In this document: positions 730 to 8,732 of the stretch, piece by piece
How the letters are laid out: each line of letters begins with the position of its first letter
How positions within the stretch are numbered: the first letter of the stretch is position 1
UHGV virus genome: UHGV-0056732
From: a virus
Strand: one strand, 5' to 3'
DNA length: 12,987 nt
The notes under the pieces: generated by a model
Told to the model about the DNA's origin: nothing
The model's input: only the letters and a program-made list of their open reading frames with translations
The model's database searches: none
Program-made: the position numbers and the translations under genes

Positions 730-1014
730 ATGCAGATTTTGATTTTTTTAATGTCCATTATTAGTGGAACCTATTTATTTCTTACTGGAGTTAGGCGTGG
801 AGCTTATAAGCCATGTTTTTTACATTGGCTTGAAGCATGGCTGCTTGCCATAAAAGGTGGTTTTGTTGGTTTTTGTCTTGCAGAAGTTCAGTGGGGAAAC
901 TCATTTTTGGATGTGGTTGCTTTTTTGATATGTAGTTGGAATAGCCATTTTGTATTAAGAATAACCAAAATATGGGTTTTTCACTTGATTTACGAATGTA
1001 TTGGCAAATTATGA
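730..1014 (+). CDS. Hypothetical small membrane protein, 94 aa, about three predicted hydrophobic helices
   Basis: ATG at 730 preceded by a strong SD (GGGAGGAG, 5-nt spacer); 94 open codons in visibly AT/T-rich DNA where stops are frequent; W/F/L/I-rich with three hydrophobic segments. No homolog recognised; could still be spurious. Confidence 0.4.
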   Translation: MQILIFLMSIISGTYLFLTGVRRGAYKPCFLHWLEAWLLAIKGGFVGFCLAEVQWGNSFLDVVAFLICSWNSHFVLRITKIWVFHLIYECIGKL

Positions 1015-1027
1015 ACAACCAGATGAG

Positions 1028-1046
1028 AAGTTACTTTGCATACCAT
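1028..1046 (+). promoter_or_regulatory. Candidate P1-type late promoter for the lydA-dar operon (9-bp inverted-repeat element plus TANNNT -10)
   Basis: AAGTTACTT (1028-1036) - TGCA - TACCAT (1041-1046); the same architecture and spacing recurs upstream of lyz (10269-10287). The late-promoter consensus is recalled only approximately. Confidence 0.4.
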
Positions 1047-1074: not shown

Positions 1075-1404
1075 GTGCTTGACACACAGGAATTAGCTCC
1101 AGTTGCTATTGCGCTCCTGCTTTCAGTAATTGGTGGGATAGGCACGTTCCTGATGGATGTCCGAGACGGTCGCCAGTCTGGCAATTTGTTGGGATTGGTT
1201 ACGGAGATCTTTGTTGCAGTGACAGCTGGCGCGGTGGCGTACCTATTGGGGCAACACGAGGGCTGGGAGTTATCAATTACGTACTTAATGGTAACGATAG
1301 CCAGCAATAACGGTCATGAGGTGATTTCAGGGATGAAACGAGTGAATATCGATAGCATTCTGAATGTTCTTACAAGTTTGGTGAAAAAGGGAGGCGGGAA
1401 ATGA
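1075..1404 (+). CDS. lydA: Holin (LydA-like), 109 aa
   Basis: GTG start at 1075 with strong SD AGGAGGG 5 nt upstream; small hydrophobic protein with TM segments (VAIALLLSVIGGIGTFL; IFVAVTAGAVAYLL); first gene of the operon next to cin as in P1; stop overlaps the next start (ATGA). Confidence 0.7.
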   Translation: MLDTQELAPVAIALLLSVIGGIGTFLMDVRDGRQSGNLLGLVTEIFVAVTAGAVAYLLGQHEGWELSITYLMVTIASNNGHEVISGMKRVNIDSILNVLTSLVKKGGGK

Positions 1405-1844
1405 TTGGCTGGGGGGTATGCGTTCTTGCGTTAGCCTTAGCCGATCGCTATTTGCTAAAACGCAAGGACATCACGCATTTAGAACTTGGTGATGTGGAAA
1501 TTAAACCGGGTTTCATCCGGGTGCCGTTCAAATACCGGTCTAAATTCCCGTTTTTGCGCGGCGCAACGGTCAGATATTGGATCCGCGATGTTCAGAAGCC
1601 AACGACAGTGATTGAAGGCGAACAACGTTGTCTGACGTCGGCTGAACAGGGCGAAAACAGTGAATGGTTGTACATACCCACTGAATATATGGGTAAAGGA
1701 GAACGGCTGTGGCATTTCAACGTCATGGTTACGCATGGCGACTCGTTCATTAACCCGTTGTATCGGATTTTCCCTGTTACTCAGCAAATCCGCAGAAGTT
1801 ACGTAATAAATCTCGCACAGGATGTGTCAGATGACGAAAAATAA
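1401..1844 (+). CDS. lydB: LydB-like holin antagonist (antiholin), 147 aa
   Basis: ATG at 1401 overlapping the lydA stop, SD GGGAGG upstream; hydrophobic N-terminus MIGWGVCVLALALA; position and size match P1 lydB as recalled. Confidence 0.65.
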   Translation: MIGWGVCVLALALADRYLLKRKDITHLELGDVEIKPGFIRVPFKYRSKFPFLRGATVRYWIRDVQKPTTVIEGEQRCLTSAEQGENSEWLYIPTEYMGKGERLWHFNVMVTHGDSFINPLYRIFPVTQQIRRSYVINLAQDVSDDEK

Positions 1845-2433
1845 GTATGCAACGGTCGATTTTGACCAGGTTAATGAAAAGGGGCTGAAATCCCTTATCG
1901 CGGCGATCAATAAAACCGGTGTTACGGTAATTGAGGTTGACTCCAGCAACCGCGCAACAACGAAAGATGGCGTTAAAGTTAAAACCGCAAAGCTGGTTCT
2001 TAACGACGGACAAATTCTTGCCATACAGGTAAACGATACTGGCGATATATCGTCTGTGAGGCTGAATGGAAAAGCTATTCCTAACGCTCAGTCTCCGGAT
2101 ATCAAGACGCTTGGTACCGTCATGGGGCAAGCGGCCCGCAAAAACTCCGCAAAATTCCAGAAATCACTGATCGCCAAAGCGAAACGTGTTGCCAATCCGG
2201 TAGACAAGAAACCGGCAGTAAAATCCAACTTTCAGCGCCTGCAAGAGGCAAAACAGCGGAATGCTCAGGTGGTTGCCGCTTATAAATCAGCGCAGAACTC
2301 GGTGTCTTTCAATCAACAGCAGATCACTGATTTGCGGGCGAAGCTGGATAAGGAGACAGGCCGACTCAATAACGAAAAGGCCCGAAATGGCGAACTCAAA
2401 CGCCGTCTTAAGCAACTGAAAGCAGGAAATTAA
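1822..2433 (+). CDS. hdf: Hdf-like protein (paralog of a DarA segment), 203 aa
   Basis: ATG at 1822 (alternative ATG at 1831); shares the KNSAKFQ block and a preceding L-DGQ-I-I region with the next gene; C-terminal coiled-coil-like stretch; stop TAA at 2431 just before the darA start. Confidence 0.6.
   Translation: MCQMTKNKYATVDFDQVNEKGLKSLIAAINKTGVTVIEVDSSNRATTKDGVKVKTAKLVLNDGQILAIQVNDTGDISSVRLNGKAIPNAQSPDIKTLGTVMGQAARKNSAKFQKSLIAKAKRVANPVDKKPAVKSNFQRLQEAKQRNAQVVAAYKSAQNSVSFNQQQITDLRAKLDKETGRLNNEKARNGELKRRLKQLKAGN
2140..2160 (+). repeat. 21-nt direct repeat copy 1 (within hdf), encoding KNSAKFQ
   Basis: AAAAACTCCGCAAAATTCCAG; 20 of 21 nt identical to 3038-3058 and codon-aligned in both genes. 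Confidence 0.6.
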
Positions 2434-2434
2434 C

Positions 2435-4321
2435 ATGGAACAGTTCAATATCAATAAAGGGGTGACGATCAAGCCTGGGCTTGACGTGCTTCCCCCGCCA
2501 GTGACTGATGATGAATATCGCGCATTAATGGCCGGTGAGGACCGCTATCTGATGACGGAATCCAACACCCTGGAGGAAATCGAGGCTACGTTCTTCTATG
2601 ACACGCCGATCCACTGGTGTGCTACGGATTTACTGGAGGCGATTAGTTCTACTCGTTTGCAGCTACACCGGACCATGCAGGCATTTGTCCGGGCATTGAA
2701 CCAGAAGCTGAATGGTACCGGAATCTCTGCGGGGAGTGATAAAACGGGGGATGTGGCCCAGAACGGTGCACGCGCGATCGGCGGGGCTGAAATTGGCCGG
2801 GCACGTAACGTTAACGGGCTGCCGGTCCTGCCAGCCATTATTCCGCTCAGTGATGGTCAGACTATCAGCATTCTGTTTCATAGCCCGACAGCGGAAAACC
2901 GGATCACCAATAGCGATACGCTGATTGCTTTCCAGTTCTTACTGAATAAAAAAGACGTTACTCATACCGTTGCTCCGATGAGTGGACGTGATATGACGCT
3001 GGCGCAGGTCACCATGAAACTTGCCAACCTTGCAGAGAAAAACTCGGCAAAATTCCAGCGTGCGCAGAAGAAGAAAAAAGCCCTGGTTGATGAAATAACC
3101 CAACTACAGGCTGACAGTGACCAGAAAGAGGATGCCATGAGCGACCTCGCGGATCAGGTGGCAGCGGTAGAAGGGCAGAAGGTAGATCTGGAGCAGAAAA
3201 TTAACGCTGTTGCATCGGAAGCGGATTCTCTTTATGAAGAGAATGAGCGTTTGCAGACGGAGATTGATCAGCTCAATCGAACTGGTGGGCGCGAAACCAT
3301 TGCTCCTGCGGGGATGACTGGTGGACACTCTCGCGCGATGACGGATCGCCTTGCAAGTATCAAAAATCGTATGCATATGAACGGGGAAGTGACGCTCAGT
3401 AATGGTGCATCAATGAAGCAATTCATTGAGGACGGTGAAGGGTATATCCAGTTAACCGATTCGGATGGCAGCGTGTACATGATCAAGGCTAAATCCATAC
3501 AGGGTGTGGACATGGCAGATGCGATCGGCAAGCTGTTTAAAGCCTATAAAGCGGGTAATGTATCGGAATACCTGGTCCAACCAGAAGAACATAAACCGGA
3601 AAACGTCGAACCTGAACCAGAAGTCTCTGTAGGTGCATATCGATATGCCCTGCAAATGCGTCCGGCGGCCCCTGGCGCAATACCTGAAGGTAACAAAGCA
3701 ATTCTGCTGCGCCCTGATGAAGGTGACCCGTATTATGAATATGCACGCTACGGCATTGCTACTTACGATACCCCGCTTTCTGATCAGCAAATGAGTGAGT
3801 ACGACCTGAAGTTATTGCCTCGCGAGGATTCTTTCGACTTCCTGGCGAAGACACTTACTAATGGTCCGTTTGGCAAATATGCACAAAAAGCTCTGGAGCT
3901 GGCCACCAGCTCACCAGACGAGTTCCGCGTAATGCTGAAAACTCAGTTTCAAAAAACTTTCCCCAATATTGCGTTTCCGGGGGGCGCTGGCACCGAGAAA
4001 ATGGTGCAGAGCATGATCAATGCATTGCAGGCCGAAGTCGGTGAGATTACTCAGCCAGAACCGGCCCCGGCACAGCCTGATGAAACGGTTAGCGAAGCAG
4101 ATGCAGAGGCTAATAAAGCCATTGAATATCTCAATAACGTGATGGATATGCAAAGCACTGACATGGCGGAGATCCGTAACGCCCGGGGCAATGTCCGGGA
4201 AGCGATTGCAGCCCTTCAGGCTGCCGGACGTTTTGAGGAAAACGAAGAGCTGGTTAACGGCGCAGCTCGCCACCTGGCTGATCTGCTGGTAGCAATCCAG
4301 AAAGCGGGGGTAGCGGCATGA
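2435..4321 (+). CDS. darA: DarA-like virion-packaged anti-restriction / head protein, 628 aa
   Basis: ATG at 2435; size and operon position match P1 darA as recalled; central coiled-coil (about residues 200-285); shares a motif with hdf; stop overlaps the ddrA start (ATGA at 4318-4321). Confidence 0.7.
   Translation: MEQFNINKGVTIKPGLDVLPPPVTDDEYRALMAGEDRYLMTESNTLEEIEATFFYDTPIHWCATDLLEAISSTRLQLHRTMQAFVRALNQKLNGTGISAGSDKTGDVAQNGARAIGGAEIGRARNVNGLPVLPAIIPLSDGQTISILFHSPTAENRITNSDTLIAFQFLLNKKDVTHTVAPMSGRDMTLAQVTMKLANLAEKNSAKFQRAQKKKKALVDEITQLQADSDQKEDAMSDLADQVAAVEGQKVDLEQKINAVASEADSLYEENERLQTEIDQLNRTGGRETIAPAGMTGGHSRAMTDRLASIKNRMHMNGEVTLSNGASMKQFIEDGEGYIQLTDSDGSVYMIKAKSIQGVDMADAIGKLFKAYKAGNVSEYLVQPEEHKPENVEPEPEVSVGAYRYALQMRPAAPGAIPEGNKAILLRPDEGDPYYEYARYGIATYDTPLSDQQMSEYDLKLLPREDSFDFLAKTLTNGPFGKYAQKALELATSSPDEFRVMLKTQFQKTFPNIAFPGGAGTEKMVQSMINALQAEVGEITQPEPAPAQPDETVSEADAEANKAIEYLNNVMDMQSTDMAEIRNARGNVREAIAALQAAGRFEENEELVNGAARHLADLLVAIQKAGVAA
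3038..3058 (+). repeat. 21-nt direct repeat copy 2 (within darA), encoding KNSAKFQ
   Basis: AAAAACTCGGCAAAATTCCAG; single mismatch relative to 2140-2160. Confidence 0.6.
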
Positions 4322-4683
4322 CACTATCAGCTATTGAGTTAATGGATCTCAGCGATAAGTTGGATGCTCTGATGTCCAAAGCGGCTACCGCGAGTGGTAT
4401 GGAGTTGCTGGATATCAGCGATGAAATTGACCAGATCATGCAACAGATGGGGTACGGCGCGTCTGGCGGCGGTAGTGGCGAGGAGAAACAACCTTCGGAA
4501 CATGATGGTGTGCCAAAACTGGTTGCTGATTTCCTGGCTGATAAATTCGTCGATCAGAGCACAGATGCATTTATCGGTACCTTGCAGGACTTGAGTCAAT
4601 ATGTTGGCACATACATCGACCTGGACCAGGTTAAACAGCACACGGCGGCATGGATAGCCGCCAACATTAAAGAGGCAGCATAA
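4318..4683 (+). CDS. ddrA: DdrA-like small acidic protein, 121 aa
   Basis: ATG at 4318 translationally coupled to darA; strongly acidic composition (many D/E, no Arg); Gly/Ser-rich linker (GASGGGSGEE). Confidence 0.6.
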   Translation: MTLSAIELMDLSDKLDALMSKAATASGMELLDISDEIDQIMQQMGYGASGGGSGEEKQPSEHDGVPKLVADFLADKFVDQSTDAFIGTLQDLSQYVGTYIDLDQVKQHTAAWIAANIKEAA

Positions 4684-4695
4684 GGCGTAACAGGG

Positions 4696-7683
4696 ATGAG
4701 CTTAAGCGATCAGGTGGTAATGGCCACCAGCATAGAAACGCTGATCGAGCTGCTAAAGAACCTGCCCGATTATGGGCGGGTTTCGTATGTGGTGACAGCG
4801 AAGGGAGACGAGGTAAAAACAGCGTTTGATATCGTCGATGCCTCAGCTCTTTTGGTATCCAATACTCTGGATGGGAAAATTAATCCAGACTATCCCCAGG
4901 AACTTCAGCCGCGCGACCGGACCCGCGCATCCAGCCTTCTTCAGGTCAACCAGATATCCAAGGATTTGCGTCCTGCCCAGCTTACCGATTCCGGTTTATC
5001 CAGCCATGGCGCGCCAATAATTGGTGAGGACAATGCCGTTGAGTCAGGTAATGGGCGGACCATGGGGATCATTAAAGCCTATCAGGACGGTAATGCGGAT
5101 CGGTATCGGGAGTACCTGATTGAACATGCGACCGAATTCGGCATACGGCCTGAAAAGGTTGAATCAATGACGGCTCCGGTACTGGTGCGCCGCCGGTTAA
5201 CGACGGTTGACCGTGTTCAGTTTGCCAAGGACTCAAATATTTCTGATCTCCAGGAAATGGCAGCCAGTGAAAAGGCTTTTGTTGATGCCGACAGCATAAC
5301 ACCGGCGATGATGGCGCTTTTTAACCCGTCAGAAAGCGGAGATCTGCTTAGCCGCAGTAATGACGCGTTTATTCGCGGATTTATGACGCAAGTTGGTGCC
5401 ACACAGGCGGCTGGCCTTGTAACTGAAGATGGGCGACCAACACGGCAACTTGTTGACCGTATACAAAACGCGATCTTTGCCAAGGCATATAAGGATGCGC
5501 GCCTGGTAAGGATGGTTGCAGAAGAACCTGATCCGGATATGCGTAATGTTCTGACGGCGCTTAATGCGGCAGCCAATGATTTTGTCCAGATGCAGGCTTT
5601 ATCAGGAGAAGCGCACAAGCAGGCTGTGACAACTATTGTTGATGGCATTGAGACAGCGGATAGCCTCGATAAAAAGGCGCTGGCGGCATTGAAAGATGCG
5701 GTAGACCTGGTAAGGCAATCGAAGGAGTCAGGCCAGCATATTACCGATGTTATTGCTCAGGGGGATATGTTCAGCGAAACGGCCCCGGAAGTGAAAGCAC
5801 TCGCGTTGTTCATCGTCGCGAATAACCGTAGCGCGAAGCGTATGGCCACCGCCTTTAAGTTGATGGCTCAACGTATCAATGATGAGTTACAGCACCAGGG
5901 CCAGGCGCTGGGGGATATGTTTGGCGGCGGCGATGTGTCGTTACAGGATATCCTTCGCCAGGTGTCTCAGGAACTGGAAAACGAAGGCATGCAAGGGATA
6001 TCCGGCGGTCTTTTCGAGTCCGTTTCCGGCGGTAGTTACAACGGTGTTGCTCCGTATACCAGTTTGCTATTACATCGGGCATCCGGCATCAAAGACATTA
6101 TTCATCTGATCAGGCTGCTTTCCCGCACAGATCCCCAGGATGAACAGCTTGTACAAGTGCTTGCGCATTTTGTTCGAATGCCTGTTGCCGACGTGAAAAA
6201 ATGGTGCCGATTATTCGGTATCAGCAATTCGTTACTTCGCGGCTTGTTAAATCACGCATCCTCCCTTGGGCGCGATGGCTTTGACGAGATAGCGCAGGCG
6301 ATAAAAAACGGAGATATGCCACCAGCTATTGACTGGTTTTCCATTCGCCCAACCAGGGTGAAAGCATTCCTTAGCGCGGCGCATTCGGCATCACCATTGG
6401 CAGAAATGGTTCAGAGGTTATCGCTCATATTCACAGACCATACCGCGTTGGGTGATCTGACTCTGGACGAGATGAAGGAAGCCTCCATTCAGTGGGCCGA
6501 TCAACAAAATGAGGTTAACTCAGACTTCTTGCCAGCATTCAGGAAGGCCGTTAGTAAAGCGGATGATGCCCGTGGAATTCTGAAGGCATTTAAGGCATTG
6601 CAAAGTCGTGTTAATAAACATGTCGGTGATATCGATGGGGTAACGGCGGAAGGCAGGGATATCCTCAAAGAGCACGGCATAACGCCAGAGTTTATTGATG
6701 AGATCAGGACGGATATGCAGCGTGAGGTCGTATCGTCCCTGCAAATCGTAGCCAGAGCGTTGGCGGATGCTAATCCGAAGAGTGCGGCCATTGTTAACCG
6801 GGTTATTGGTGATATTGAAGCATCGGAGGGCATGGGGGCGCTGAAACTCTTCCTTTCGCGAGCGTTTAATCCTAACGGCAATATTCTCCCTGGCATTATT
6901 GGTGAGGCTAAAAAGTATGTCAGTGAAGAAGAACTTGAGCAGCTTGACCAACTACTTAAGCGATTCTCATATAACCCGCAGACACGCTGGCAAATGAATC
7001 AGCGAAGTATGGGTTCGGTCCACGAGAAAGTGTTATCTGCCATGAACAGTGCGATCGCAAACTCATCCGTATCTGAAGAAAAAGCTCTTGAGTGGGCCGA
7101 CTCTTTTATCACAGAAGAAGTGGAAGAAGCCCGCGCTGGACAGAATGGTGGGATAGACCTGCGCAAGGAACTTGCTGATATTTATCGCCTGACCGGCGGG
7201 AAAATATCGACCTTATCAAAGGTAGTTCACCACCAGGGAAGGGCATATGCAAATCTAAATGGTGTTGTTGCTGTCAATTTGAACGATAAAAATGCAAGTG
7301 CACTGTGGCACGAGCTGGGTCATCATCTTGAGTACAGTAACCCTGGTTTGTTAGAGAAAGCCCGGTCATTCCTGAAGGCCAATGTTGAAGGGGATAAGCC
7401 ATCATTCGTCAATATCGGTGGGCGTGGCAAGCCTGAATGGTGCTTCAGATCTCGATTGAGTAATATTTATATGGCGAAGGTATACCCGCCAGCCTCAGTA
7501 AGTAATTCCGGGAAAATTCGGCAGAAATCACCGACTATTTCCAAAACGTCAGCAACGGAAGTATTCTCTATGGCTCTTCAGTTGTATCATGACAAAGAGG
7601 CCGCTGCCGCATCACTGATGAATGGTGACGGATTGCTGGAACTGTTATTAGGTGTGGCAAAGGAGCTAAATAATGCAGATTAA
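4696..7683 (+). CDS. ddrB: DdrB-like large protein, 995 aa, with an N-terminal ParB/Srx-like motif region and a C-terminal HExxH zinc-metallopeptidase-like motif
   Basis: ATG at 4696; residues about 60-130 carry a ParB-N-like pattern (NPDYPQELQPRDR ... APIIGEDNAVESGNGRTMGI); residues 872-876 are HELGH (nt 7309-7323) followed by H877 and E887; size matches the roughly 108-kDa P1 DdrB as recalled. Confidence 0.65.
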   Translation: MSLSDQVVMATSIETLIELLKNLPDYGRVSYVVTAKGDEVKTAFDIVDASALLVSNTLDGKINPDYPQELQPRDRTRASSLLQVNQISKDLRPAQLTDSGLSSHGAPIIGEDNAVESGNGRTMGIIKAYQDGNADRYREYLIEHATEFGIRPEKVESMTAPVLVRRRLTTVDRVQFAKDSNISDLQEMAASEKAFVDADSITPAMMALFNPSESGDLLSRSNDAFIRGFMTQVGATQAAGLVTEDGRPTRQLVDRIQNAIFAKAYKDARLVRMVAEEPDPDMRNVLTALNAAANDFVQMQALSGEAHKQAVTTIVDGIETADSLDKKALAALKDAVDLVRQSKESGQHITDVIAQGDMFSETAPEVKALALFIVANNRSAKRMATAFKLMAQRINDELQHQGQALGDMFGGGDVSLQDILRQVSQELENEGMQGISGGLFESVSGGSYNGVAPYTSLLLHRASGIKDIIHLIRLLSRTDPQDEQLVQVLAHFVRMPVADVKKWCRLFGISNSLLRGLLNHASSLGRDGFDEIAQAIKNGDMPPAIDWFSIRPTRVKAFLSAAHSASPLAEMVQRLSLIFTDHTALGDLTLDEMKEASIQWADQQNEVNSDFLPAFRKAVSKADDARGILKAFKALQSRVNKHVGDIDGVTAEGRDILKEHGITPEFIDEIRTDMQREVVSSLQIVARALADANPKSAAIVNRVIGDIEASEGMGALKLFLSRAFNPNGNILPGIIGEAKKYVSEEELEQLDQLLKRFSYNPQTRWQMNQRSMGSVHEKVLSAMNSAIANSSVSEEKALEWADSFITEEVEEARAGQNGGIDLRKELADIYRLTGGKISTLSKVVHHQGRAYANLNGVVAVNLNDKNASALWHELGHHLEYSNPGLLEKARSFLKANVEGDKPSFVNIGGRGKPEWCFRSRLSNIYMAKVYPPASVSNSGKIRQKSPTISKTSATEVFSMALQLYHDKEAAAASLMNGDGLLELLLGVAKELNNAD

Positions 7684-7993
7684 AATCGCAGCGCCATTAG
7701 GCGGAGATGCCATTATCGAATTTGATGATAATGAAGAAGTTTCCGGGCGTTTGAGCATTATCTCCGGTGACATTACCGAGGACATGATCGCTGAAGCCAT
7801 AGCTGGGGCAAATCCCAATAGCTATATGGGATTCGTTAACACCCTTGATGCTCCCGCAAGTGATGTTCTCCGAACGCTGCATCTTTACGCTGGCTGGTTT
7901 GTTGATTGGCCAGCAGTAGATGGTGGCGATGAGGATGATGATGACGATGAAGAGGTTTTTAGTGATGAAACAGTAAACCAACTCTTGTATTGA
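7673..7993 (+). CDS. Hypothetical highly acidic protein, 106 aa, translationally coupled to ddrB
   Basis: ATG at 7673 overlapping the ddrB 3' end by 11 nt, SD AAGGAG 7 nt upstream; poly-acidic C-terminus DGGDEDDDDDEEVFSDE; about 27 D/E versus 3-4 K/R. Confidence 0.6.
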   Translation: MQIKIAAPLGGDAIIEFDDNEEVSGRLSIISGDITEDMIAEAIAGANPNSYMGFVNTLDAPASDVLRTLHLYAGWFVDWPAVDGGDEDDDDDEEVFSDETVNQLLY

Positions 7994-8123
7994 CAGGAAT
8001 TGGCATAGAATTGATTGTTCAAATTTCATCCATCACATAGACGACTTCATGTTATTTGCCTGATAATTATGGCCTTAATAACCCATGTATATCTTTTGGG
8101 TTATATTCTTATCTTTAACAAGG

Positions 8124-8167
8124 TTATAAGAGCGACAATGATAAATTTATCACTATCGCTCTTATAA
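8124..8167. repeat. 44-bp near-perfect palindrome between convergent genes; possible terminator and/or protein-binding site
   Basis: TTATAAGAGCGACAAT-GATAAATTTATC-ACTATCGCTCTTATAA: 16-bp arms (14/16 complementary) around a perfect 12-bp palindromic core; followed by T-rich CTCTTTGTT; lies between the stop of the 106-aa ORF (7993) and the stop of the minus-strand 95-aa ORF (8197). Confidence 0.5.
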
Positions 8168-8196
8168 CTCTTTGTTAGCTATAGCTTTAAACAAAT

Positions 8197-8484
8197 TTAG
8201 TTTTGAGGCAATGCAACAAAAGTCAGCTCTTGATCTTTGATTAATGCTTTTGTTTGTTTGGATGTAATTCCCACTTTAGTTTTTACATCATTGTGGAGCT
8301 TCTTATACGCTTTTATTTCATCTGCTGTATATCGGAAGCCATTTGCACTGTTACTGGACAGTTGAAGTGCGATTACGTCATCACTGACACCCGCATCGCT
8401 TAGCTTAGCTATGCGGGTAATAGTGTGGCCTGCGCGAGTGTTTGGGGTGGATATTTTGTCTAAGAAATTGTTCAGTTTTTCCAT
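8197..8484 (-). CDS. Hypothetical small protein, 95 aa, possibly HTH DNA-binding, in an AT-rich island
   Basis: ATG at 8484 with SD AGAGG 9 nt upstream; segment HTITRIAKLSDAGVSDDVIALQL resembles a helix-turn-helix; visibly AT-rich flanks; own upstream region separated from the 263-aa gene by a terminator. Confidence 0.55.
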   Translation of the reverse strand: MEKLNNFLDKISTPNTRAGHTITRIAKLSDAGVSDDVIALQLSSNSANGFRYTADEIKAYKKLHNDVKTKVGITSKQTKALIKDQELTFVALPQN

Positions 8485-8706
8485 TGTTTACAACCTCTTA
8501 CTTGAGTTTATTGCCAGTAGAATTGCTACTATTCTTTTGCCTCAACGAATCACAATGTACTGGAATAAGAAACTATGAGCAATACTTACGCTTTGCGAAT
8601 ACAGAAGATGAATAATCAACTTATTACTAAAATGTTAATAATATTATTCTGTTACATAGTGTTCGCTATAACAATCGGGAGTTGAATGCTAATTCAATAA
8701 ATAAAG

Positions 8707-8732
8707 ACCCCGCCAATTGGCGGGTTCTTTTT
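8707..8732 (-). terminator. Rho-independent terminator just downstream of the 263-aa gene; also usable on the plus strand
   Basis: GC stem CCCGCC(8709-8714)/GGCGGG(8719-8724) with 4-nt loop AATT; T-run TTCTTTTT (8725-8732) on plus, GTCTTTATT on minus. Confidence 0.6.

Follow-up and report, generated by a model that had tools for sequence, protein, structure and literature searches.

The window analyzed here, a 12,987-nucleotide (nt) stretch of the virus genome UHGV-0056732, covers the darA operon (defense against restriction, Dar) of a P1-like (Punavirus) phage or plasmid prophage. We found that a 106-amino acid (aa) open reading frame (ORF) at positions 7673-7993 is the hxr gene of P1 (P1_gp021; YP_006490.1), where its product has 102 aa, and that the best supported reading of this product, Hxr, is that of a partner dedicated to DdrB's C-terminal module, either an inhibitor or a chaperone, and not a DNA mimic of the Ocr/ArdA type. 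We advance this reading tentatively. It is suggested by a ddrB-hxr junction that is invariant in 11 loci while the link between ddrA and ddrB is broken in two, and by a conserved basic patch in DdrB, beside its HExxH motif, that complements the acidic tail of Hxr. An earlier note on this DNA had proposed that two strongly acidic small proteins bracketing ddrB, DdrA and the 106-aa protein, are DNA mimics or else chaperones or packaging adaptors for DdrB, and had left the P1 counterpart of the 106-aa protein uncertain. That counterpart is now settled as hxr, and the chaperone or adaptor idea is the one that fits the junction and the basic patch best, with binding between the two proteins putative.

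The junction was compared in 11 loci with intact operons: the window, P1, JK004, and eight metagenomic or genomic loci (L003, L006-L009, and L011-L013). All of them have the hxr start 11-17 nt ahead of the stop codon of a ddrB gene encoding 929-1015 aa, at Hxr identities down to about 30%. The ddrB-hxr pair was split in none of the 11, whereas the ddrA-ddrB link was split by insertions in L008 (HicB) and L012 (GerE and SSB). The insertions lie at 3985-4425 and 3548-4920 of these loci, respectively. In the window, the overlap amounts to 11 nt (7673..7683), with the ATG of hxr at 7673 and the stop codon of ddrB at 7681-7683; P1 shows the identical 11-nt overlap and the identical Shine-Dalgarno (SD) sequence, and hxr is the last gene of the darA operon there as well. 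An SD of the form AAGGAG, AAGGAA, or CAGGAG was located 7 nt before hxr in the eight loci printed, and a GC hairpin, usually followed by a T run, came directly after the hxr stop codon in six of these eight. Both small ORFs of the earlier note were found where it had placed them, with overlapping start and stop codons, and its statement that a small acidic protein is coupled to ddrB was borne out by the 11-nt overlap. Its wider statement that both proteins are coupled to neighbors is correct for ddrA, which overlaps the darA stop codon by 4 nt (ATGA), and for the 106-aa ORF; since 12 nt lie between the end of ddrA and the first base of ddrB (4696), physical coupling to ddrB is limited to the 106-aa ORF.

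Outside the pair, the genes 3′ of hxr vary almost everywhere and include toxin-antitoxin pairs, Arc-like, CHAP, porin, and DUF905 genes, and IS1 in P1; the edges of the pair are cargo hot spots. Toxin-antitoxin pairs (RelE/MqsA, MazEF, HigBA, and ParE/helix-turn-helix) were seen near ddrB-hxr in five loci. Segments near the edges of the pair lie at L006 8457-9147, L009 14374-14951, L012 13875-14591, L013 9669-10408, and L014 6677-7387. In L014, a deletion remnant, only the last ~120-155 aa of ddrB and hxr are kept. Phage D6 has hdf, darA, and ddrA together with a DdrB reduced to its N-terminal 454 residues, and is without both the C-terminal half of DdrB and hxr. The D6 ddrB gene (L010 5992-7437) is annotated as 454 aa, with a tblastn match that extends about 80 nt beyond its stop codon, and looks truncated or decayed; a DUF4145 gene and a lipoprotein-like ORF stand in place of the DdrB C-terminus and hxr.

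Locus L003 is a mosaic. Its Hdf, DarA, DdrA, and DdrB residues 1-889 are 98-100% identical to those of the window, and dense divergence begins at DdrB residue about 890, eighteen residues past HExxH, and continues into hxr, which is 62% identical to that of the window and duplicated. The position of this breakpoint indicates that the last 105 residues of DdrB were exchanged together with Hxr as one block. The duplicated L003 gene (8205-8759; protein P0007, 184 aa) is a natural tandem duplication of the Hxr domain that begins with TTG and overlaps ddrB by 17 nt; its first copy retains only a short acidic linker, WDDEEDLIV, ahead of the second. Across the loci, divergence of the Hxr core correlated with that of the C-terminal half of DdrB (rho 0.76-0.79) more than with that of the N-terminal half (rho 0.54-0.64).

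The part of DdrB that travels with hxr lies at the end of a 995-aa protein whose residues 36-167 match the Pfam family ddrB-ParB (1.3e-39) and whose C-terminal domain was predicted to be a zincin-like metallopeptidase by Iyer et al. (2017; PMC5512222). DdrB is processed before packaging to a form of about 76 kDa that is found in heads, and the C-terminal peptidase is thought to be responsible (PMC5512222). Around the HExxH motif (HELGH in the window), the sequence W-H-E-x-G-H-H-x-E-[YF]-S was invariant in 11/11 hxr-adjoining DdrB orthologs, as was a downstream T-E-x-x-S-M-x-x-Q-x-Y. The orthologs are acidic overall (net -18 to -31), and their most basic 60-aa segment (+7 to +11) begins 16-22 residues after HExxH in all 11. 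For DdrB of the window, the mean charge of all 60-residue segments was -1.1 with a standard deviation of 3.0, and the most basic of them carries +9; it is encoded just upstream of hxr, inside the block that was co-exchanged with hxr in L003. Compared with the distant orthologs (L005-L013), identity was 54-92% in the N-terminal half of DdrB and 36-42% in the C-terminal module. The middle of the protein (residues 501-750; window 6196-6945) is hypervariable, with 14-29% identity to the same orthologs. Processing to about 76 kDa was placed at roughly 700 aa by Iyer et al. (PMC5512222), a site that would fall in this hypervariable middle.

Hxr itself (MQIKIAAPLGGDAIIEFDDNEEVSGRLSIISGDITEDMIAEAIAGANPNSYMGFVNTLDAPASDVLRTLHLYAGWFVDWPAVDGGDEDDDDDEEVFSDETVNQLLY, ending in ...GGDEDDDDDEEVFSDETVNQLLY) is extremely acidic, as the earlier note had said and as a charge and isoelectric point (pI) calculation confirmed. 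It contains 25 Asp or Glu residues vs. 3 Lys or Arg, for a net charge of -22 and 23.6% acidic residues, and its pI was ~3.1 by direct titration; the Biopython value of 4.05 is the lower limit of that algorithm, and our own titration was used in its place. When the composition of the neighboring genes was taken as background, the chance of at least 25 acidic residues was P = 0.002 and that of at most three basic residues was P = 0.001. The acidity was kept in every homolog (net -11 to -22).

The charge is unevenly placed. AlphaFold2 was run with an 18-sequence Hxr alignment and gave five models with a predicted local distance difference test score (pLDDT) of 72-76. A globular core with a predicted β-β-β-α-α-β order (residues 1-82) scored 83-91 in most 10-residue blocks, with block 21-30 at 71, and residues 90-106 fell below 50. 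Of the net charge of -22, 12 units fall within the 26-residue stretch that follows the WP motif, and most of that stretch (residues 90-106) is the low-pLDDT part. In the alignment, the core comprises 75-80 residues with G53, V65, L66, R67, W75, W79, and P80 invariant, and carries a net charge of -3 to -10 depending on the family member. The tail (DGGDEDDDDDEEVFSDETVNQLLY in the window) is 20-26 residues long and has a net charge of -8 to -14 with no Lys or Arg in 18/18 members, and its sequence is poorly conserved. It ends, as a rule, in a hydrophobic pair followed by Asn, Tyr, or His (IVN, VVN, IVY, LLY, PIH). The core had no fold match among known structures, and a search of PDB sequences with the Hxr profile returned nothing below E = 0.67; it is a domain without a recognizable relative.

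Family membership is clear over the full length of the protein (PHROG 2292, E = 7e-59, residues 1-106). The first 82 residues are identical to P1 Hxr at 80/82 positions (97.6%), and among the window, P1, P7, SJ46, and RCS47 they are 97.6-100% identical. The difference from P1 is confined to the last ~13 residues (...DDDDDEEVFSDETVNQLLY in the window vs. ...DDDDDFGDHVDQIVY in P1). The P1 tail ends in FGDHVDQIVY, and that of the window is diverged yet recognizably homologous (DETVNQLLY vs. DH-VDQIVY). Escherichia phage vB_EcoM-Ro157c2YLVW matches bases 4000-8400 of the window at 98.6% identity over the whole length, and P1 matches them at 98.3% over 90% of it. Near-identity to P1 stops at 7948, within the run of Asp codons in hxr. 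The run (window 7925-7950) has five, six, or eight Asp after GGDE among near-identical alleles (P0001-P0004), and this GAT/GAC repeat may therefore be a recombination junction as well as a slippage site. The window allele of hxr also occurs in Ro157c2YLVW (99.1%) and in about 25 P1-like plasmids of E. coli and E. albertii. A variable segment at 7948-8731, which stands in place of the isaB-IS1 region of P1, is likewise common to that phage and about 25 E. coli and E. albertii plasmids; it contains the minus-strand ORF 8197-8484. As a sequence feature, hxr is accordingly known already, the allele being present in public phage and plasmid records, and it is the functional proposal made here that is new.

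The Hxr family is very small and confined to P1-like elements. Among 5.8 billion proteins, a word-indexed search recovered 15 Hxr sequences, an exhaustive HMMER profile search of 1.84 billion representatives recovered 16, all but one of them short and P1-like, and a second profile search gave 28 matches. Full-length members have 95-106 aa, apart from the tandem duplication; others are truncated fragments. The exception in the HMMER search, a 7048-aa match (P0020), was rejected as a relative, since it is low-complexity noise (hhalign probability 0.02%). The HMMER search of 1.84 billion representatives showed no Rosetta-stone fusion of Hxr to DdrB or to any other protein. The long contigs that carry hxr are 80-96-kb P1-like elements of Escherichia, Klebsiella, Citrobacter, Cronobacter, and Rosenbergiella. 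The only hxr-like gene seen without an adjoining ddrB (L004 2024-2326; 60% identical, TTG start) has a DinI gene nearby and is probably a rearranged remnant, because it lies on a 2.7-kb fragment without intact neighbors.

These observations suggest how a partnership between the two proteins could work. The overlap of the hxr start with the ddrB stop implies that both would be made together, Hxr arising at the time and place of DdrB from an overlapping start that is served by a strong ribosome-binding site of its own. Docking on the basic segment that follows HExxH would involve both the 80-aa core and the acidic tail (net about -12), and the hydrophobic C-terminal tip may occupy the substrate cleft of the putative peptidase. 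Hxr would in this way restrain or chaperone the C-terminal peptidase or DNA-binding module of DdrB in the producing cell, until DdrB has been processed and its fragment loaded into the procapsid. Hxr itself, and perhaps the C-terminal fragment of DdrB, would remain outside the virion, in the cytoplasm. Two published results agree with this proposal, in that hxr is non-essential by CRISPR interference (PMC10695390) and Hxr is not among the virion proteins of P1 identified with liquid chromatography-tandem mass spectrometry (PMC9024508). Dar of P1 is the classic virion-packaged anti-restriction system, and published work counts six proteins and omits hxr; a charge-complementary companion of DdrB would bear on DdrB processing and on the loading of DdrB and DarB into heads. 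The gain is modest, with hxr a catalogued, non-essential gene, its family confined to P1-like elements, and its mechanism one that we infer.

Small acidic cognate inhibitors encoded directly after their effectors include the colicin DNase immunity proteins Im7/Im9, barstar, and the immunity proteins of polymorphic toxins. Like them, Hxr is ~100 aa long and very acidic, its gene overlaps the end of a gene for a large multidomain effector, and its charge complements a basic patch on the predicted enzymatic C-terminal module of DdrB. As in effector/immunity pairs, hxr is found directly 3′ of ddrB and is co-inherited with its C-terminal module. It differs from these inhibitors in showing no sequence or fold similarity to them and in carrying much of its charge in a disordered tail, and DdrB is not known to be toxic, with Hxr-DdrB binding itself putative. 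A bolder version of the partner proposal, which we consider possible but unlikely, would place Hxr in a new fold-orphan "safety-catch" class, an acidic-tailed inhibitor, translated together with its target, that would block the zincin peptidase or basic DNA-binding module of DdrB, an injected polyvalent effector, until the capsid is loaded. Hxr would then be the regulator so far missing from accounts of DdrB processing and ordered Dar assembly, with a rapidly evolving tail that would co-adapt with the last 100 residues of DdrB.

Several points weigh against a partnership with DdrB. Assignment of a peptidase to DdrB rests on the HExxH motif and on the prediction of Iyer et al., and gained no significant backing from domain or structure databases: the best Pfam match of the C-terminal peptidase was Reprolysin_4 at 5e-4, in one of nine members, and a PDB profile search with the DdrB C-terminus gave chance matches to polyphosphate kinase only. 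RNA structure that would hide the hxr SD, and so force translational coupling, was unsupported (z = -1.45); with the SD predicted to be accessible, obligate coupling of hxr to ddrB is not implied. Adjacency and common descent both confound the distance correlations, which show a modest difference at most, and we place no reliance on them. Conserved adjacency, the joint replacement in L003, and the joint loss in D6 might each come from mere physical closeness at the end of an operon beside a recombination hot spot. Absence from virions is weak evidence, in that the tryptic peptides of Hxr have 4, 22, 41, and 39 residues and only the 22-aa peptide (IAAPLGGDAIIEFDDNEEVSGR) is of usable size, set against a threshold of two peptides. 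What was observed for the putative contact between Hxr and DdrB is charge complementarity (tail -8 to -14 vs. patch +7 to +11).

That same gap in the proteome leaves room for a different role, improbable in our judgment, in which Hxr would be an overlooked seventh packaged Dar component, injected with the DNA and serving as an acidic decoy or DNA mimic against type I restriction or other DNA-binding defenses. The virion-packaged Dar proteins are Hdf, DarA, DdrA, DdrB, Ulx, and DarB, and the other operon products Hdf, DarA, DdrA, and DdrB are all virion proteins. A study that demanded two unique peptides could miss a protein that gives one usable tryptic peptide, and the 29 knockouts assayed for antirestriction did not include hxr. 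T7 Ocr (gp0.3) and ArdA have charge densities in the range of the -0.21 per residue calculated for Hxr. Hxr shares with them its small size, its very high negative charge density, and an anti-restriction context, and its carboxylate density (23.6% Asp/Glu, net -22 in 106 aa) is conserved in the family. The resemblance ends there. Hxr is related neither in sequence nor in fold to Ocr, ArdA, or any known mimic, and searches of Pfam, NCBIfam, and PADLOC gave no anti-restriction match (PADLOC and NCBIfam gave no match of any kind for Hxr or DdrA). About half of its charge belongs to a disordered tail that differs in sequence and length among members and would probably not display it as a fixed array or on a rigid DNA-shaped surface, and the charge of the core is itself variable (-3 to -10). 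A mimic of this type would be present before restriction and act in trans, whereas hxr is neither an early nor a leading gene but the last of an operon with a late promoter, and Hxr was not detected in virions (PMC9024508). Dar, moreover, protects only in cis, that is, the DNA packaged with it and not co-infecting phage (PMC12707154), which argues against a mimic that titrates the enzyme. The DNA-mimic half of the earlier proposal is therefore unsupported.

A further alternative, which we find rather doubtful, keeps Hxr in the producing cell and gives it a target other than DdrB, such as a DNA-handling protein of host or phage that it would bind late in infection (RecBCD, the partners of SSB, or the packaging machinery), with the place after ddrB reflecting operon economy alone. 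In SSB, T7 gp2.5, and T4 gp32, an acidic disordered tail with a hydrophobic tip at the C-terminus serves as a protein-binding handle. The tail of Hxr is likewise disordered and strongly acidic with a short hydrophobic tip, its composition is kept while its sequence is not, and this tail-plus-tip architecture is conserved. The accessible SD means that expression need not depend on translation of ddrB, and the L004 gene has no ddrB upstream. Against this reading, the tip is mostly I/V-V-N (or IVY, LLY), whereas SSB tails have an aromatic Pro-Phe (D-I-P-F) or a Phe at the end; the Hxr core is not an OB fold, Hxr has no DNA-binding domain of its own to regulate, and L004 is probably a remnant. Nor does a separate target explain the strict association with full-length ddrB, Hxr being confined to P1-like elements and found beside ddrB in every long contig examined. 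We also considered the Hxr tail as a mimic of the SSB C-terminus and dropped the idea, as most tips end in Asn and none in P-F.

Databases carry a third reading, that Hxr is an Xre-like transcriptional repressor, which is effectively refuted by the computational evidence and has next to no chance of being correct. The P1 annotation calls hxr a "possible repressor" in a note citing 28% identity of residues 23-80 to the B. subtilis phage repressor Xre, and hhalign against a genuine HTH_3 protein did align 21 residues over the would-be helix-turn-helix region, probably the chance resemblance behind that 2004 note; for this and a second genuine HTH_3 protein, both taken from related loci, the hhalign probabilities were 0.5% and 0.2%, Pfam gave no helix-turn-helix family even at E up to 1, the predicted core of three strands, two helices, and a short strand is not the five-helix bundle of lambda-repressor-like proteins, DNA binding is implausible at a pI of ~3.1 with a net charge of -22 and three basic residues, and hxr, the final gene of an operon for structural and anti-restriction proteins, is under a late promoter. 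Correcting the label matters, as "possible repressor" has spread to many records of P1-like phages and plasmids.

The second small protein of the earlier note, encoded at 4318-4683, is DdrA of P1 itself, with no notable difference. DdrA has been detected in P1 virions and is an established virion Dar protein, listed as an antagonist of EcoA restriction (PMC9024508). It contains 21 Asp or Glu vs. 7 Lys or Arg (net -14; pI ~3.7 by titration); compared with the composition of the neighboring genes, the acidic count was not unusual (P = 0.11), and the basic shortage was mildly so (P = 0.03). Its net charge ranged from -3 to -15 across 11 orthologs. The description of DdrA as extremely acidic is thus only moderately accurate, and its acidity is not conserved, which argues against charge mimicry as its mode of action. 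The acidity of DdrA is incidental and not a defining property, and a logic shared by DdrA and the 106-aa protein as an acidic pair, as the note had supposed, is weak because the charge of DdrA is not conserved.

The gene order of the window, read from the P1 annotation and from domain searches (Pfam and PHROG), is given in Table 1.

Table 1. Features of the window, with positions numbered from its first base.
Feature	Position	Strand	Remarks
cin	48-608	minus	
lydC	730-1014		
Late promoter LPdar	1028..1046	+	Drives lydA-lydB-hdf-darA-ddrA-ddrB-hxr; conserved base for base relative to annotated LPdar of P1
lydA	1075-1404		
lydB	1401-1844		
hdf	1822..2433	+	Basic Dar and head-size protein, net +21; Pfam DarA_N 1.5e-21; PHROG 1620, Hdf-like
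darA	2435..4321	+	628 aa; Pfam DarA_N 3e-42, DarA_C 3e-17
ddrA	4318..4683	+	121 aa, moderately acidic virion Dar protein; PHROG 1855, DdrA-like, 1e-57
ddrB	4696..7683	+	995 aa; N-terminal DdrB-type ParB domain, hypervariable middle, C-terminal HExxH (predicted zincin) module
HELGH motif of DdrB	7309..7323	+	aa 872-876, inside the invariant W-H-E-x-G-H-H-x-E-[YF]-S
Basic segment of DdrB	7357..7536	+	aa 888-947, net +9; most basic 60-aa segment; proposed docking site of the Hxr tail
SD of hxr	7660..7665	+	AAGGAG, within the ddrB coding sequence, 7 nt before ATG
hxr-like ORF	7673-7993	+	106 aa
Globular core of Hxr	7673..7918	+	aa 1-82; β-β-β-α-α-β predicted by AlphaFold2; net -10
Acidic tail of Hxr	7919..7993	+	aa 83-106, positions include stop codon; predicted disordered; no basic residue; hydrophobic C-terminal tip LLY
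Candidate operon terminator	8115..8178	.	Window variant; long hairpin then T-rich stretch, between hxr and the convergent ORF 8197-8484
95-aa ORF	8197-8484	minus	No assigned function
isaA, ssb, lyz, pro, end of prt			Follow ORF 8197-8484 in the gene order

The region at 1022-1080 is identical, base for base, to the P1 region with the annotated LPdar (L001 1496-1514). DarA has 628 aa here vs. 639 aa in P1, owing to an in-frame deletion of 11 residues (PESAEDTGSSS) after residue 392. The deletion site (window about 3608-3613; codon 392/393) lies within an acidic linker rich in Pro and Glu.

Downstream of hxr, the hairpin at 8115-8178 is nearly perfect, with a lower stem of about 21 bp and an upper stem of 5 bp, and is followed by CTCTTTGTT. 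Its RNA fold z-score was -4.9, and 0/200 shuffles folded as well. A simple terminator scan of the window did not call this hairpin, which separates the convergent genes hxr and ORF 8197-8484 and may act as a terminator in both directions. The basic 95-aa product of the latter ORF had no Pfam or PHROG family match. Two further ORFs lie antisense to the genes discussed above. One, of 110 aa (7697-8029, minus strand), is opposite hxr and is probably a shadow ORF, judging from its interruption in L006, L007, and L012 and from its lack of a family. The other, of 143 aa (5217-5648, minus strand), lies inside ddrB and is the counterpart of the annotated iddB of P1.

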